Shown here in pieces: positions 6,546-52,677 of a DNA stretch of 64,000 bases. The notes below the pieces were generated by a model that did not search any database, was not told where the DNA came from, and saw only the letters and a list, made by a program, of their open reading frames with translations. The DNA comes from Octopus vulgaris (Eukaryota). The stretch spans positions 22,258,001 to 22,322,000 of the forward strand of contig OX597827.1 in NCBI GenBank assembly GCA_951406725.2, written 5' to 3'. The position numbers and the translations under genes are program-made. How positions within the stretch are numbered: the stretch's first letter is position 1; the number at the start of each line of letters is the position of its first letter.

Positions 6546-7299
6546 CTGGGAAAAGAGGAAAGAAATGAAACAAAACTATTAAAGAGAATTTTGCAAAATC
6601 AATTTACTACTGTTGTTAAAGAACAGTGGCTTCTCCCTACTGGTGTCAGTGGTGAGAAGCCACTGGGAATAGGTAAGGATGTATAGGACAATGACAAAAA
6701 CAAACACAACAATAATCGTATGATGGGAAAAGGCTGTGCGGTCACACGATGGGCAGATATGGGGGGTAATGCATAGAACAATGAAAATGTAATACAGGAT
6801 GGAAATGAAAACAGGACAAACAGAAAGTCAGAATGAAAGATGAAGGAAAAAAATAGGAGCAGAGAGAAACTTGACCAAGAGAGCCATCACCTCACCATTG
6901 ACTGTCAGTCATGTTTCTCTGCTCCTACAGATTTTCTACACCATTTGGTTTCTTCATCTTTCGTTCTGACTTTCTATCTGTCTCTTTCTTGTTTCCATCC
7001 TATTGGACATTTTCGTTGTCCTTTGCATTATCCCTCATTTGTCCATCTTGTGGCCGCACAGCCTTTTTCTTTTGTTGTTGTGTATGTATAATTATTATAT
7101 GTTGTCATGTTCGTTTCTATCACTGTCCTGTGCGCCATTAGCTTTTCCCAATCGCTTCTCACCCCTGGCGCCACCAAAAGGGAACAATGTCATTGTTAAA
7201 GGCGCGAAATTGTTATGATCTTTTGGACGTTGACTGATGAGGAATTAGCAACAAATTTTTCGCTTTTTGTGTTTTTGTTAAATTTTTGGAATATATATG

Positions 7300-7710
7300 A
7301 TGGCCGTCCACTCGTGATCGAGGAAGACCATTGCTGACCCTCAGGAACATTGTGCGCTCTAAGACTAACTTACATTCTGCATATGCAGCTCTGTTGGTGG
7401 CTAATGAACTCTGCTCTTGACAAGCATACACGACTGCAAACATTGCAGACCAAGCTTTCCCCATTCACTACACTAGCAGTGCACTTTCAAGCAACAAGCT
7501 TAAGTTCTTCATGCAGAATACGTGCTCTCTCTAAAGTGTCGAACCCCACTCCTTAACCTGCTTCCTCCATCTGAGGTGATGACAGGCAGTGCTCTCCCAG
7601 TCAGTCTCCTGCATATCACAGGCCTTTAATGAGGACTTGACACAGTCCTTAAATTGCAGCCTTAGTTTCTACTGGGGTCTCTTTCCATTCACAAGTTCCC
7701 CATTTAGCAT
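7300..7710 (-). mobile_element. RTE/BovB-like LINE 3' end with terminal Cys/His motif
   Basis: Minus-strand frame ...ERARILHEELK...LVCNVCSRVCLSRAEFISHQQSC. Confidence 0.65.
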
Positions 7711-7959
7711 CTGTTTATATATATAAATATATATATACACACACACACACATATATACATACATACATACATATATTCATGGTTTGTTTTTAATGTTGCT
7801 ATGGATTTGAAGGTTTGCTTTACAGTTATCATTACTGACCTGGGTGTTCTGATATCATGCATGCGAGGCCCAGCATCCTGAAATCAGTTTCCGTTAGTCA
7901 GATAGAGTTATAGGCCTTTACTTAAGAATCGCTCAGTAAAGCTAGACAAAACAACATAC

Positions 7960-8193
7960 TTCTCCAATGCTTATGATTCCAGTCGTCAACAGTAGAGCCC
8001 TCCATACTCTTGCTGAGTGGCCATATAATACATGGACAATTTCACTGGTGGCCATCGCCCAGTCTTCAGGCCAAATAGATTCAGGAGCATTCTTCCCTTG
8101 GAATGTGAGCTTCCATACTCGGATACTTCGGTCATCCGAAACACTGCACATCAGTTGTTGGCGCTGATGGTAATGGATTGAGAAAATCACTCC
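7960..8193 (-). CDS. WDR6: WDR6 coding exon 7
   Basis: GVIFSIHY...CSVSDDRSIRVW...LYGHSARVW...IISIGE, canonical WDR6 WD40 repeats; CAG and GTATG boundaries; 234 nt. Confidence 0.95.
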
Positions 8194-8987
8194 CTGGATA
8201 GAAGCAATATAAATAAAAGAAAAAAAGTATCAACTTTGAGTGCAACATTTTAATTGAAGATACATAAAGGGAGGGGAATAGTTCTCTATACATTTGAATA
8301 TCTCTAGGGACCATTTGAGATTCATGACTAGAAAAAAAAAACAAAACATCTTTGACTGAATAACATTGGATATGAATAGAAATAAAAAGCAATAATATCT
8401 GGATATGTCATACTAGGAATATGATTGGCAAAGTGAATATAAGCATTGATAAAGTATCAAGCATTAAATGTAGGAGTTTAGTGAGAGGACAAAGGTTCAA
8501 TCCTTAGGTAAGGTAATAAACACTGGCTCAAGCAGAACAAGTGGGCAACACCACATGTTGGAGACTGGTCTTGCTATGGTCAACTCTAAGAGAACAACTA
8601 AACTCCATGGATTTATTAACAAGCTTGGTTTCAAGTTCCAAGAATATTATCAAATATGACAGATACCAATAAAAGGGGTCAGAGGGTAAAATGACTGAAA
8701 TATTGTAATTAACAAGGAAAACGAGAAGACTAATCTGATTCTATCAGGGTATAATATTGCGTAGTACACCATCCAGCAGACAAGTACTTTGGTATATGTG
8801 TGGAGTGAGGGAACGAAGAAAGGAGAGAGAGAGAGAGAGGTAGAGAGAGGAGGAGTGGATAAAATGTGAAGAAAACAAGTCTAGAGTAAGGTGGAGGGCA
8901 TAGATGTAGAGTGCAGAGTAGTGGTAGGTGTGGAAAGGAGGTAGGGTGAGGAGGTAGTAGAAGTTAGAAGCTAAAGAACCAACTCAC

Positions 8988-9147
8988 CTGATGTCCTGTG
9001 AAGTATTGCAATGGCTTACTGAAGGTTTGACCAGAGTGATCAACTGTGGTGTTGACCACAGGTGACCACACTACAACCTGGTTGAACACTGTACCAGAAG
9101 CTAACAGCAGCTGGTTCCAACTGACTCCTATAAAATGTGCAGAGTAT
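8988..9147 (-). CDS. WDR6: WDR6 coding exon 6
   Basis: YSAHFIGVSWNQLLLASGTVFNQVVVWSP...PLQYFTGHQ with the GTVFN motif; GTGAGT donor; phase 2/0. Confidence 0.92.
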
Positions 9148-9689
9148 CTGGTTAACGAGTTAAAGATTACAGAGATGCTGTTTAACCCCAGGTCAGCCCC
9201 AGGAGGGTATAATTTGAAGGAGAGAAGGTTGAGATAGATGTGATGTCATTGTGGTTGGGTTTATGATGATGACATTACAATGTAGGAGTGGCTGTGTGGT
9301 AAGTAGCTTGCTTACGAACTACATGGTTCAGGGTTCAGTCCCACTGCGTGGCACCTTGGGCAAGTGTCTTCTACTATAGCCTTGGGCCAACCAAAGCCTT
9401 GTGAGTGGATTTGGTAGACGGAAACTGAAAGAAGCCCGTCGTATATATGTGTGTGTGTGTGTATGTTTGTGTGTCTGTGTTTGTCCCCACCAACATCGCT
9501 TGACAACCGATGCTGGTGTTTTTAGGTCCCTGTAACTTAGCGGTTCGACAAAAGAGACCAATAGAATAAGTACTAGGCTTACAAAGGATAAGTCCTGGGG
9601 TCGATTTGCTCGACTGAAGGCAGTGCTCCAGCATGGCCACAGTCAAATGAGTGAAACAAGTAAAAGAGTAAGGGTGAGTAAGTACAATC

Positions 9690-9733
<44 letters not shown>

Positions 9734-9747
9734 CAATGAAAGGATAC
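9148..9747 (-). other. U12-type (minor spliceosome) GT-AG intron of WDR6
   Basis: 5' splice site GTATCCTTT; branch-like TCTTTAAC about 8 nt upstream of the terminal CAG; no polypyrimidine tract. Splicing restores the conserved CILYSA motif. Confidence 0.85.
9282..9668 (+). mobile_element. tRNA-derived SINE family B, inside the U12 intron
   Basis: GTGGCTGTGTGGTAAG A box, GGGTTCAGTCCC B box, ACCTTGGGCAAGT core-like segment, internal (TG)n; other copies at 23272-23692(-), 40345-40700(-) and 55995-56158(+). Confidence 0.85.
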
Positions 9748-9866
9748 AGAATACATTGTTCCTGACAGTGAACATAATTAAGCAGTTGGTCAGCCGTCCA
9801 ATTCCATTGAACAATGACATTGTGGCCCAATGTAATGGCAAGATTGCTGTTTGGACATTGGTCAGT
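9748..9866 (-). CDS. WDR6: WDR6 coding exon 5
   Basis: TDQCPNSNLAITLGHNVIVQWNWTADQLLNYVHCQEQCI(L); followed by U12-type donor GTATCCTTT; phase 0/2. Confidence 0.9.
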
Positions 9867-10064
9867 CTGGAAACAAGATGGAGATAGAGGCAAAAATATA
9901 TAGAAGCAAAACACAATTTAGAAAACTGTACTAAGATATATTTATAGAAATTAATTTCAGAGTATTAGATAATTATTATTCAATTATTAAATTAAAAATT
10001 ACGTGTTGGGTGCATGTGTGTATATCAAAATGATGGGGTTAGAAGTTAATAATGTTCTTCGTAC

Positions 10065-10131
10065 ATTTGTCAGCCATCGAACATCCCAGATCCAATCCTG
10101 AAATTCTCGACTTCTGTGTTCCTCTGTGATT
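10065..10131 (-). CDS. WDR6: WDR6 coding exon 4
   Basis: ITEEHRSREFQDWIWDVRWLTN containing the WDR6-typical DWIWDVRWL motif; CAG acceptor, GTACG donor; phase 2/0. Confidence 0.9.
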
Positions 10132-10755
10132 CTGTTAAAAGAAAATATTCAGTAAATTTAATGGGGGTGGGGTGGGGGGACACAGGGAGAATTAGTAAAT
10201 ACTTCCATCACCATCGTCATCATCATCCTAGACATTATCATCTCAATATGGGGTCTTCTACTCGTTTGATCAACCCAGTAGCTATAGCAACCAAATCTCT
10301 CTCAATTCATTCATCACCCTCTTTGCAAAATAAGAAGAAAAAAAAAACATTGGACAATGTAAAGCGGGTAATAAGACAAAAGGACAGGGTGGTCATGGCT
10401 GGAATGGATTTGATCAGAGCTCATGAGATGAGATGATTACATAACAAGAACTTCACTACTTCCACTATCCTCAGCATCACTATCATCATCATCTACAACA
10501 TCCCCGCATCCATCTTTATCATCACCACCCACAACACCATAACAAATACCATTACCACACCACTACCACCCTCAACAAATACCCCACATCCACACCACCA
10601 CCATCACTGCTACCATCATCATCATTGTTCATGACAAGCAATGGTTCCCCCCCCCCCACCCAAACCGGTTATAATGACCATACTGGATCCAGTCGAACAT
10701 TTTCACAAAGAATAAATAACAGCAGTAAAAACAACATAAAAACAAAAATATTTAC

Positions 10756-28175: not shown

Positions 28176-28940
28176 CGTAAGTCACATTCGTTTCTAAGAT
28201 GTTAACAATTCCTGTGCTGTCTTTTGTGACTCAGACAAAAGAAAAAAAATGCCTTTGTTTGATGACTTTTTTTCGCATTATATCTGCATATCCTTTTTTC
28301 ACGAGTGTAGGGCATGTATGGTGTCTCTTTAATGCTGGTAGTGATTTGTGGGTTTTTTCTTTACTGTAGACACAAGCATGGCTCTGTGGGAAGAAGTTTT
28401 GTAGATGCAATTTTTTTTTAATAAAGCACTCCGAAATCAGAAAAGTCAAAAAATCCGCAACAATCTCGGTCCCATGAGTATCGGATAATGGGTTTTCAAC
28501 AGTGTAAAGAAACTGATTGTGGTGACTGTAGTTTTGATGGTGATTGTGGTGAGAGGAGAGACAGTGTTGATGATGACGATGGTCGAGATAAGTATGGGAA
28601 GAGGATAAAATAGTATCGGTGGTTAAAATGGCGACAGGAGCGGTGTGATGTCTGATGCTGAGGTGATGGTGGTAATAGTGGCGTCGATGATAGTGTTAGT
28701 TATGTGATGGTGGTATTGCAGTGGTTATACTGGTTGTGGTAGTGAAAGTGACTGTCAAGGTAACCGTCATGATAACATTGATGGCGGTGTATGTGGTTGA
28801 AGTGGAAGCAATGACAATGTTTCTGATGATGTTGGTGGTGGTGGTGGTCGTCGTCGTAGAGCTTTTCTAGTTTATTAATACTACGAGCACAGAGAAGTCG
28901 CCCTGTTTTTGTTATTGTTGGTGGTATTATTGTAATTTTA

Positions 28941-30219
28941 TGAGGTGGCATCAAAGAGTTCCCCAACAAGCTATGTTTAAAAAAAAAATTATTTACCGAA
29001 CCTTTAACATCCTCTCCTTCGAAAAAGTCACCTTGCGTAGCAATACGCCGGTCCCAGCATCCCTGCCACTTTTGGAATCCGGCCTGGAAGTCGTGGGCCT
29101 TCTGCGATTCGCTCTTGATCTCGCCGAGAGCGATGTTAAAACGGCGATCTTTCAGCTGCATTTTCGTCTTAGGGGAAGAGATGGAGATTGGCAGGAGCTA
29201 AATCTGGAGAATGGCGCGAGGAACACAAGAGTGAGGCGAGCTCGGTGACAGGGTGCATTGTCGTCGTGAAGAATCCAGACGGTAGGATTGCTTGCACGGA
29301 CCCCAATGACAGAACCAAATAACCCCTTTGACAGACCCAAATGACCCCTATGACAGACACAAATGACCCATATGACACACATATGGCCCCTATGACAGAC
29401 CTTTATGACCCCTTTGACAGACCCCTATGACTCCTATGAGAGACCCAAATGACCCCTATGACAGACACAAATTACCCATATGACAGACCCATATGGCCCA
29501 TATGACAGACCCATATGACCCCTTTGACAAAACCCTATGATCCCTATAAGAGACCCATATGATCCCTATGACAGACACAAATGACCCCTATGACAGACAC
29601 AAACGACCCATATAACAGACCCATATGACCCCTATGACAGACCCATAGGCCCCTATGACAGACCCCTATGATCCCTATGACAGACCCAAATGACCCCTAT
29701 GACAGACCCTTATGACCCCTATAACAGACCCATATGACCCCTATAACAGACTAACAACATCAGCAATGTCGCTGATTGTCCTCCGACGATCCTCATGCAC
29801 AAACTGACGAATTTTCTCCGCATTCCCGGAAGTGACCTCCGTGACAGGTCTTCCAGGGACGTTCTTCCACTTTTGAAGCGCGCCAGTGTCACTCAAAACA
29901 TTGCGTATGACCCTTGGCCCCGTCGCCGTAAGCTTACCGAAGCATGCTCCATGTCTATGTAGGAAACTCCCCAAGTTTAACGCAAAATTTCACGTTGACT
30001 CTTTGTTCCAACTTCTTGTCCATGACAAAAATTGCAGACTACAGCATCCACAGATGATCACAAAAACACAAATTTCACAACTTATCAAGTAAAGACACTG
30101 ATGTCACTCGGCACACTGCCTCACGAAGGTCGCTGCTAGCTCTTACTTCGCACACAACCTTGTGCTGTCATCTGTTGGCGCGCTACAGAACTAGTTCGGG
30201 AACTTTTTACAGCACCTCG
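28941..30219 (-). mobile_element. Mariner-type DNA transposon relic with internal minisatellite
   Basis: TIRs (T/C)GAGGTG..AAA(G/A)AGTTCCC..AAC with TA TSD; transposase remnants GRP...DRRRTISDIADVV, WILHDDNAPCH, HSPDLAP. Confidence 0.9.
29300..29750. repeat. Minisatellite (ATGACCCCTATGACAGACCC-like, ~20-21 bp)
   Basis: About 20 diverged tandem units inside the mariner. Confidence 0.9.
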
Positions 30220-40822: not shown

Positions 40823-42090
40823 TTAGGTTGTTCCGAAAATAATGACTGATTTCAGAAACTAATTTATTCTGGAAAAATTAACAATAGAAATGTTTTGATT
40901 AGTCAAAGTATGAGCCGTGAACATCTATGCATCTCTGCTATTGATCAACGAGATTATTTATGCTTCGTTGATAATAATTTACTGGCTTTAGAGCTAAGAA
41001 ATCTTTGAAAACTGATTCCACCTCTGGTTTGGACCTGAAAGTTTTATCACTTAAAAAGCGTGTTTAAATGCTTCAAAAAATGGTAGTGAAAGATCAGGAG
41101 AATATGGAGGATGTGGTAAAGTCTCGTATCCCAAGTCTGTGAGTTTCTGCAGCGTTATTCTTGCAACATGTGGTTTTGCATTATCGTGGAGCAGAATTGG
41201 GCCATGCTGGTTCACCAATGCAGGTCTCATTTTTTGCAAGTGAGCATGCATTTCAGCGAGTTGATTGCAGTAAACCTCTGCGGTAATGCTCTGATTGGCT
41301 TCCAGAAAGCTGTAATGGACAACACCAATTGCAGACCACCAGACACTCACCATAATTTTTGCTGATGCAACTTTGACTTTGGGAAATGTTTGGGGGACTC
41401 TTCACGATCAAGCCATTGATCTGATCGTTTACGGTTATCATAAAAGATCCACTTTTCGTCACAAGTGACTATTTGGTCAAGAAAAGGATCATTGATATTT
41501 CGAAGAAAGAGCATCGAGCACACTCCAAAACGCCGAACTTTTTGATTTTCATTGAGCTCATGTGGTATCCATTCATCGAGGGTTTTCACCTTACCAATCC
41601 TCTGCAGATTGCGCGAGACCGATGCAATACCAACACAAAGCGCCTGAGACATTTCTCTGACACTTTGACATGGGTTTTGTTCAACAATAGCTTTCAACTG
41701 TTCATTGTCAAGATTGTATGACCGTCATCTACCTTCTTCATCTTCAAGGCTCTCATCACCACTACGGAATTTTTGAAACCGCCTTCGTACTGTGCGATCA
41801 CTTGTGGACCCCTCTCCCCATGTTCTGCTAATATTGGCAGTAGTTTGGGAGGCATTGTGCCCCCCTTGAACTCATGCAAGAACAGTAAGCGAAGGTCTTT
41901 TTTGTCATGTTCATAATTAAGGGCGCCGATGCTTCAAGAATGTTTTCTGAAATAAGTAAAAATTTATTAAAGAGCATACATCAATTATTAAGTATGTCAA
42001 AATTCACCAAAAATATAATTAAAATCCTTCGATAAAATTGCGTTTCAAAACACAACACTTAGAGCGGCCGTTATTTTCGGAACAACTAAA
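40823..42090 (-). mobile_element. Near full-length mariner (DD34D) with frameshifted transposase
   Basis: TIRs TTAG(G)TTGTTCCGAAAATAA; WIPHEL, IVTCDEKWIFYDN, LLHDNAKPH, HPPYSPDLS; about 1.27 kb. Confidence 0.92.
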
Positions 42091-45001: not shown

Positions 45002-45140
45002 TCAGTTCTATACATAGGAATGAGAACCCAGGTTCGAAATTTCCCCAAGACACCTGATGAAGGCTGGAGAGTACATCAGCCGAAACCTTGTGTTAACAAC
45101 AAACAAGTTGAGGACAAATATCCATCAAATGTAAATAATG
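45002..45140 (+). mobile_element. TSD-flanked hammerhead element (same family as 52228-52654)
   Basis: 11-bp TSD TTCTTCATTCT; GACAC-CTGATGA-A-GGCTG(GAGAGTACAT)CAGCC-GAAA-CC-TT-GTGTT; ends GTAAATAATG. Confidence 0.8.
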
Positions 45141-51285: not shown

Positions 51286-52227
51286 CTGAAACAAATTAAA
51301 AACTTAGAGTTAGAATTGAATATCAAAAGTAAAAAAATACTTTTGTGATAAAAATTTTTATTTAATAACTGGAAGCAAGCAAATATTACGGTAAACAATG
51401 TGTGTGTGTATTTTATTAAAATGTGAATCATTCAATGTCAATAATTTGAATACTTTATTGTAAATGATTTCCCTGTTTTCCTGAACAACTAAACTCAGAA
51501 TTAAATCTTTGGTAATTCTACAGACAGATATTTCGGACATTTTTCAGTGATTTCAGAAAAAAAAAAAAAAAAAAATTAAATTCAGTAAAAGATTTCTTTA
51601 ATTTTTCCACATCCCCAATTTTCTGTGAATTTTCTCTCACCTCTCTTCCTGAACTCGTTCGTTCATTTACTCATTCTTTTTTCTCTTTCTTTTGTTTCTT
51701 CTCTCCTTCGCTCTTCTGTTCATACGTTTCACATTCACCTCCATCGCATTCCTCTTGCCTCTCCACCGACCTCACTCATTTTCTTTCCATACAGAATAAA
51801 ATGGCGTTGCACTGGGCCTCTTGTTCTTCTCTTATAACTTTTTTTTTCACATTACAGCTTCTCGCATCCCTGTATTTCCTTCACCATCCTTCTTCAGACT
51901 CCCTCTGCTCCAATCTTTTTACTGCCACGCTTTCCTCACACTTAACACAACGCACCACACCCTAACTATAACCCATGCCGCTTTACATCCGTATTCGCAC
52001 ACCACTGCATATACACCCTCACACGCATACAAACACATGCACGCGACAACACACACAGCACTCCATCTTTATGACATATCAAAACATGGATACACCCCTA
52101 TACGTGTACACACCCGTCCTCTCTTTCCTCTCTTCTTAACTCCTTCCATACAACCACATTGTAGTTTTTTTTCTCTTATCTTAATCAATTTTCGTCTCAC
52201 ACGTACTTTAAGACTTTTTCCTTTCTA

Positions 52228-52425
52228 CAGTTCTATATTTAAGAAATGAGGAATTATGTACCTTATTTACATTATTTACATTATTTACATTTGACGGATA
52301 TTTGTCCTCATCTTGTTTGTTGTTAACACTATGTTTCGGCTGATACACCCTCCAGCCTTCATCAGGTGTCTTGGGGAAATTTCGAACCTGGGTTCTCATT
52401 CCTAAGGTATTTTTCTATGTTGTTG

Positions 52426-52491
<66 letters not shown>

Positions 52492-52654
52492 ACACTGCCT
52501 GGAATCGAACTCGGAATCTTGGGGTTAGTAGCCCGCATTCTTAGCCACCACGCCATATATCTGATGACGGTTGGAAGGTATATCAGACGAAACGTTGTGT
52601 TAACAACAAACAAGATGAATACAAATATCCGTCAAATGTAAATAAAGTAAATAA
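52228..52654 (-). mobile_element. tRNA-headed, double-hammerhead retroelement in glass intron
   Basis: 13-bp TSD TTTTTCCTTTCTA (52215-52227 and 52655-52667); minus-strand A box TGGCGTGGTGG and B box GAGTTCGATTCC; (AAT)n; hammerhead at 52325-52370(-); inverted hammerhead copy at 52561-52601(+). Confidence 0.8.
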
Positions 52655-52677
52655 TTTTTCCTTTCTATTTTAAGCAT

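Follow-up and report, generated by a model that had tools for sequence, protein, structure and literature searches.

The stretch analysed here (the window) covers 64,000 nucleotides of the Octopus vulgaris genome (contig OX597827.1, positions 22,258,001 to 22,322,000) and contains, at window positions 52228 to 52654, a 427-bp insert flanked by 13-bp direct repeats, as the original prediction made from the letters alone had described. That prediction took the insert for a non-coding, self-cleaving retroposon which carries a tRNA-like head and borrows the machinery of Penelope-like elements (PLEs). Judged by its sequence, the insert is the terminal repeat (pseudo-long terminal repeat, pLTR) of a coding element of Penelope/Poseidon type and not a separate non-coding short interspersed element (SINE).

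All parts proposed for the minus strand (head, (AAT)n/(AAC)n run, minimal hammerhead, 9-nt repeats and tail) were located in that order. The tRNA-derived head, a likely promoter for RNA polymerase III (Pol III), lies at 52488-52560. Its A box (52555-52545) and B box (52512-52501) were both present as predicted, in a head which has lost its first 4 nt and with one change in the A box (G versus A in family copies). Between the head and an ATG at 52399 lies an (AAT)n/(AAC)n run whose length varies (52419-52487). A 57-codon open frame (52228-52399) begins at this ATG and represents the predicted N-terminus of a Penelope reverse transcriptase (RT)-endonuclease. This frame includes the minimal type-I hammerhead (52325-52370), the 9-nt tandem repeats (52262-52288), which are in frame as Val-Asn-Asn and at which tail-less arms stop, and the 34-nt Penelope tail (52228-52261), which in the full element consists of open reading frame (ORF) codons continuing into the N-terminal domain. 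An inverted, 5'-truncated second arm of 95 nt (plus strand, 52561-52655), 89 % complementary to the first, extends from the hammerhead core to the 9-nt repeats, without the tail and without the 5' strand of helix I. The direct repeats lie on the plus strand at 52215-52227 and 52655-52667; since the final TA of the left one also fits the continuation of the element itself, the true target site duplication is 11-13 bp.

The coding element behind the insert

Exact-word counts, rough as they are, gave 8,169 matches in the 2.8 Gb genome for a 19-mer of the hammerhead, 8,806 for the 18-mer just upstream of it and 2,931 for a 22-mer inside the head, while each reversed control gave none. The head and the hammerhead segment are stably linked as one unit, as anticipated for copies genome-wide: the ribozyme segment was found in 42 of the 50 arms selected by their head, the other eight consisting of head and AAT run without the rest, and the head was found in 49 of the 77 arms selected between head and ribozyme (threshold 30, control maximum 19), those without it being mostly cut short within the AAT run.

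The sequence located 5' of the head and common to several copies translates as the C-terminal end of a GIY-YIG-type endonuclease. A search with this protein yielded 4,890 candidates, of which 150 were scored (77-100 %) and 30 loci returned. A tRNA-like head was encountered about 30 nt 3' of the stop codon in 29 of these 30 loci, followed by the ribozyme segment in 21. A coding PLE sharing the terminal segment was thereby found. In it, the ORF stop is followed after about 30 nt by the tRNA-like head and then in turn by (AAT)n, the ATG, the hammerhead, the 9-nt repeats and the tail. Penelope machinery remains the likely mover, as first proposed; it is not borrowed from a foreign element, for the coding element carries the same head itself. 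Nor did the notion of a non-coding chimera survive, as the hammerhead, the 9-nt repeats and the tail are the first codons of the ORF, read from the ATG at 52399, and the coding element has this head in its own 3' repeat.

Of the 150 loci scored, L317 had the longest open frame, 569 aa with DKG, RT and endonuclease motifs; no whole ORF was seen. L315 was nearly whole, and its 5' end reads in frame from the tail into the N-terminal domain. Alignment of a family copy with the N-terminus of P0003, a homolog of 847 aa, scored 85 (maximum 52 in 2,000 shuffles), and the following 120 residues reached 248. A frame starting at an ATG inside the catalytic core was dropped, since P0003 supports the upstream ATG. 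The match to RVT_1 (E 2.7e-6) fell just under the Pfam cut-off, and the Pfam GIY-YIG profile did not match the protein, whose endonuclease motif was seen by likeness to homologs; 2,744 homologs were gathered at E<=1e-30, some of them carrying PF01541.

The protein displayed the DKG motif and lacked the linker zinc finger of Neptune and Nematis. In a quick tree of 17 rows, none omitted and with uncharacterised homologs only, it grouped with P0001, P0002, P0003 and P0005, far from a Neptune-type GIY-YIG family of the same genome (L121, L127, L128) that has the linker finger. The latter family, obtained in a first partner search by Pfam GIY-YIG, was rejected as partner as it shows no DNA likeness. 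The closest protein homologs (P0001-P0007) were 55-68 % identical. The family is best described as an old burst, its copies sharing about 93 % identity with the majority sequence. Some copies, at L002 (G000:C5:18374307-18377734) and L119, were inserted in ORFs of other retroelements, R4/Dong-like by eye at L002 and a DKG-bearing PLE at L119. The Neptune-type family itself (L121, L122; G000:C16:20835500-20841500; C2:17353500-17359500) was young and had many open frames of 781 aa. Its 3' region contained tandem repeats rich in CCAAT/TGACGTC, and a U3-A8-variant hammerhead was noticed by eye near its end.

Insertion ends, hammerhead and RNA reads

The Penelope-type ends suggested for the insert were also encountered in sampled copies of the family. 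Inverted pairs made up 62 of the 110 sampled insertions; the tail was located on one arm in 56 of these pairs, on neither arm in six and on both arms in none. Flanking duplications of at least 8 nt (8-13 nt) were found in 31 of the 62 pairs, versus 1.6 % of mismatched flanks. The same pattern is described for PLEs, whose copies are often heavily 5'-truncated and have inverted partners (PMC8557442). Arm ends fell in two clusters, at the 9-nt repeats and at the tail end, in agreement with the pair of internal sites where RT starts in PAc of Anolis carolinensis and by which its tail is defined (PMC11167929). Instead of the A-rich or simple-repeat 3' ends made by long interspersed elements, these copies had Penelope-type ends at two fixed internal sites. 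Nine of the 30 ORF-bearing loci (L283-L312) were without the full ribozyme segment and several of them ended in the (AAT)n run, suggestive of priming at a third site where targets are ATT-rich. Of the first 100 matches to the hammerhead 19-mer, inspected by eye, 11 had a neighbour on the opposite strand within 1 kb and one had a neighbour on the same strand within 400 bp; head-to-tail tandem hammerhead units of the retrozyme or Sm-alpha type were not observed, and the sampled insertions consisted of inverted pairs and single copies.

In architecture the ribozyme agrees with the minimal type-I hammerhead found in PLEs (PMC4209133): it has a 5-bp helix I, a bulge, a 6-bp helix II, no helix III and a palindromic core end, which would need a dimer. 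The cut is predicted between 52330 and 52329 of the minus strand. In the decayed window copy the helix-III tetramer is ACAU (ACAT in the DNA) versus the self-complementary ACGU (with U17; ACGT in the DNA) of family copies, and the 'CA-TA' core end initially described is a decayed form. Both head and hammerhead were identified by motif and alignment evidence, and Rfam did not call the hammerhead. Single-strand folding z-scores near 0 to -1 were uninformative. Core position 7 was T in 55, A in 17 and C in two of 75 copies; as this is also a third codon position (Asp/Glu), the variation was discarded as proof of selection on the ribozyme. Traces of cleavage, which had been proposed as a check, did not appear: neither arm 5' ends nor RNA read ends cluster at the predicted site. 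Only six of the 93 arms have their start inside the ribozyme or past it, one of them within 2 nt of the site, and the start of the window's inverted arm at the catalytic core, correctly noticed in the original prediction, is therefore not a preferred one. Self-cleavage of the window copy appears unlikely. In PAc the hammerhead likewise overlaps the ORF start; it cuts only with protein, and insertion in vitro does not require it (PMC11167929).

In three runs of one study on a related organism, 7,277-10,614 raw RNA reads fell on a family copy, to the same extent in both directions and mostly less than 95 % alike. Loose read ends marked the tail end, the 9-nt repeats and the fold-back at the head. 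The family sequence is present in RNA, much of it probably as part of host transcripts, and the reads say nothing on the promoter. Among the RNA-read joints listed, no intron-type joint was found in the repeat. A search of sequencing runs met part of the stretch in 20 rows from five organisms, with no RNA run among the matches listed. In raw RNA reads on L304:1150-1800, A>G plus T>C changes exceeded G>A plus C>T changes (81 v 62, 106 v 72 and 88 v 62), against 17 v 27 in the contig run; the excess may reflect A-to-I editing of inverted pairs.

The insert is located in an intron of glass, a photoreceptor transcription factor gene, on the same strand (exons 53024-52812 and 51365-50079). The distance to the upstream exon is 158 nt. 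Exon sequence was 98 % identical to glass of Octopus bimaculoides, and the two arms would fold as a 95-bp hairpin in the glass pre-mRNA. The window also contained a second partial family copy (45015-45139, plus strand, 92.8 % identical to a family copy) and, by eye, remnant frames resembling mariner transposase on the minus strand (41347-41724 and 28871-29248).

The tRNA-derived head and its putative polymerase

Aligned with ten tRNA genes of the genome, the family head scored best with tRNA-Arg(TCT) (z 8.2), followed by tRNA-Cys (z 7.3), which leaves the isotype uncertain. tRNA-derived heads are also known from the octopus SINEs named OK, OR1 and OR2, the last two of Arg origin. A relaxed A/B-box pattern found both boxes in only eight of 30 own loci, which is why the score against the tRNA panel was used for comparing relatives. 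Among relatives, 28-50 % identical, none of the 50 with at least 150 nt of 3' flank displayed a tRNA-like flank (best score 28; own loci 21-46). In family heads such as that of L224, an upstream frame of two codons (ATG and one more, then TAG) overlaps the A box, and the anticodon arm contains a branch-point-like TACTAAC, for which no matching intron joint was present among the RNA-read joints listed. Seven tRNA-Cys-like genes were clustered within 3 kb at L258.

The 5' ends of the arms pile up at the head. Head sequence was present in 94 distinct arms, of which 68 extend to the head start. Of these, 58 end within the range -19 to +7 (45 within -8 to +3), and the remaining ten continue, ending between -26 and beyond -540. 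The 22-mer just upstream of the head gave 757 exact genome matches, versus 2,931 for the one inside it. Type-2 Pol III promoters start transcription 10-20 nt before the A box, and the pile-up is placed where such promoters start.

TTTT is the stop signal of Pol III. It was absent from the sense strand of the repeat and from the 2,366-nt majority ORF, whose first 630 nt rest on one to three copies; in the ORF of single copies, ten TTTT runs occurred in 39,035 aligned nt (0.26 per kb). Codon models for the element's protein expected 2.9-3.2 runs (P 0.03-0.04), and in this genome four ORF stretches of Neptune type with the same base composition contained nine, eight, one and three. None of the 35 relatives with a stop-free frame of at least 500 aa was free of TTTT. 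Twenty intact relatives of matched T content averaged 3.7 TTTT per kb, 14-fold the value of the element, and T-runs were present in the 3' repeat of 20 out of 22 relatives.

We consider it fairly probable that the head acts as a Pol III promoter of type 2 and that solo and 3' repeats give rise to short RNAs, which the element's protein would insert through target-primed reverse transcription begun at two internal sites. Pol III would start at the head, or a few bases before it, in any intact repeat, and a solo or 3' repeat would yield an RNA of about 300 nt running into the flank. The element's protein would then nick AT-rich DNA, and reverse transcription would begin at the 9-nt repeats or at the tail end, as in PAc; the inverted second arm may originate from second priming or from fold-back, with the help of a short palindrome located immediately 5' of the head. 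The hammerhead, which likely needs a dimer or protein, would probably remain uncut in the RNAs that become inserted. As its own Pol III head and its own protein would make and insert them, the short copies of the element would be SINE-like without forming a separate family. The element may even make its mRNA with Pol III. The fullest form of this proposal, in which the entire 2.7-kb coding element is transcribed by Pol III from a captured tRNA promoter, its sense strand purged of terminators, the RT-endonuclease translated from uncapped RNA with a ribozyme in the first codons and each solo repeat a SINE, which would make the element LINE-like and at once its own SINE, is put forward tentatively, as somewhat doubtful when taken as a whole.

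Several observations weigh against the Pol III reading. The exact-word counts depend on CpG decay, and the sampled copies all lie within the initial 50 Mb of a single contig. Neither ARAGORN, run on the window, nor Rfam called the head as a tRNA. L324, a relative without tRNA head, displayed a 1,906-nt ORF stretch free of TTTT (one of 35 composition-matched loci; the survey which gave it examined 71 of 80 loci, leaving out nine short matches), and Phe is scarce in this lineage (2.2-2.6 %). RNA reads revealed no site where many molecules begin or end; fragmented libraries of this kind, with reads from many loci, may fail to show starts. Finally, fold-back or stalling of the RT could make part of the 5' pile-up, because 38 of the 58 head-start ends adjoin an inverted arm and many junctions are centred on the palindrome.

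These junctions, often perfect fold-backs at the palindrome and also seen in RNA reads of a second organism, speak for a passive role of the head. A SINE composed of tRNA and (AAT)n would once have inserted in the 3' repeat of a master Penelope with an ordinary promoter for RNA polymerase II (Pol II), the short copies being 5' truncations stalled or folded back at the GC-rich palindrome and the tRNA-like fold. PLEs are known for such heavily truncated copies with inverted partners (PMC8557442), and the eight head-anchored arms reduced to head and AAT run would fit as well; such ends, however, also occur in ORF-bearing copies, so that they need no free SINE. The other 20 of the 58 ends adjoin plain flank, the palindrome is only 10 nt long, truncation is far rarer upstream of the head, and the 14-fold lack of TTTT along the ORF is left unexplained. 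We regard this account as unlikely.

Less likely still would be a Pol II start site at the head, with the tRNA-derived boxes as accessories (a TFIIIC site or a nucleosome-free region) and the short RNAs of solo repeats as Pol II products. Promoters of PLEs do sit in the pLTR (PMC6765202, PMC11167929), a fixed Pol II start would account equally well for the 5' pile-up, and capped RNA would be easier to translate. It offers no reason for a loss of TTTT from the sense strand only, and the pile-up coincides with the expected start of a type-2 Pol III promoter. The separate self-cleaving SINE of the original prediction, a tRNA head joined to an unrelated Penelope end, is highly improbable: most copies do look SINE-like in holding head-to-tail sequence only, but the coding element carries the head, the ribozyme segment is coding, and no ends cluster at the predicted cut site.

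Related systems and significance

The element is a member of the Penelope class whose novelty would lie in its tRNA-derived promoter. Like Penelope/Poseidon PLEs such as PAc, it has a single ORF with RT and C-terminal GIY-YIG-type endonuclease without the Neptune linker zinc finger (PMC11167929, PMC8557442), and it shares with PAc-type PLEs the minimal hammerhead over the ORF start, the 30-40 nt tail at one end, the inverted 5'-truncated partner and the AT-rich targets. It differs from the descriptions of these in the tRNA-derived A/B-box segment of its repeat, the sharp pile-up of 5' ends and the nearly TTTT-free sense strand.

The pairing of a tRNA-derived, Pol III-type head with a following hammerhead, initially presented as an undescribed chimeric class, is known from the schistosome Sm-alpha and Sj-alpha elements, whose copies number in the tens of thousands (PMC2770079, PMC6765202). 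These have a canonical active hammerhead in tandem units, in contrast to the minimal and coding ribozyme and the dominant inverted pairs of octopus, and the excerpts of both papers name no coding Penelope element with the same head. TRIMp3 elements (Cassandra, Helenus, Ajax) likewise display a small-RNA-derived Pol III promoter inside a retroelement terminal repeat (PMC10886601). They are non-autonomous long terminal repeat elements with primer-binding site and polypurine tract, and their autonomous partners must use Pol II according to the same source, whereas the octopus promoter is located in a coding Penelope-class element with Penelope-type ends. Non-LTR retrozymes and non-autonomous PLEs resemble the short copies as hammerhead-bearing derivatives of PLE repeats moved in trans; retrozymes form head-to-tail arrays giving circular RNA, and no tRNA-derived head is mentioned for them in the excerpts of these sources (10.64898/2026.07.22.740005, PMC7229834, PMC8557442).

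tRNA-derived SINEs exist in octopus (PMC3531059), and the word 'hammerhead' is absent from the main text of the octopus repeat library paper (PMC13282606). A coding PLE with a tRNA-derived promoter was not listed by full-text literature searches; Repbase, Dfam, subscription journals and supplements were outside their scope, so that the family may be catalogued there under some name.

The general view is that Pol III produces nothing but short non-coding RNA and that autonomous retroelements depend on Pol II. A Penelope element that codes for protein, is driven by a tRNA promoter and has an ORF without terminators would be a testable exception to this view, and would show a route by which a SINE-like family can be born inside its own mobiliser. 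It also offers a natural dataset for questions on Penelope elements, such as the two RT start sites, the one-sided tail, the inverted partner and a ribozyme doubling as coding sequence. For annotation, thousands of octopus calls of 'SINE' or tRNA pseudogene may be Penelope repeats.
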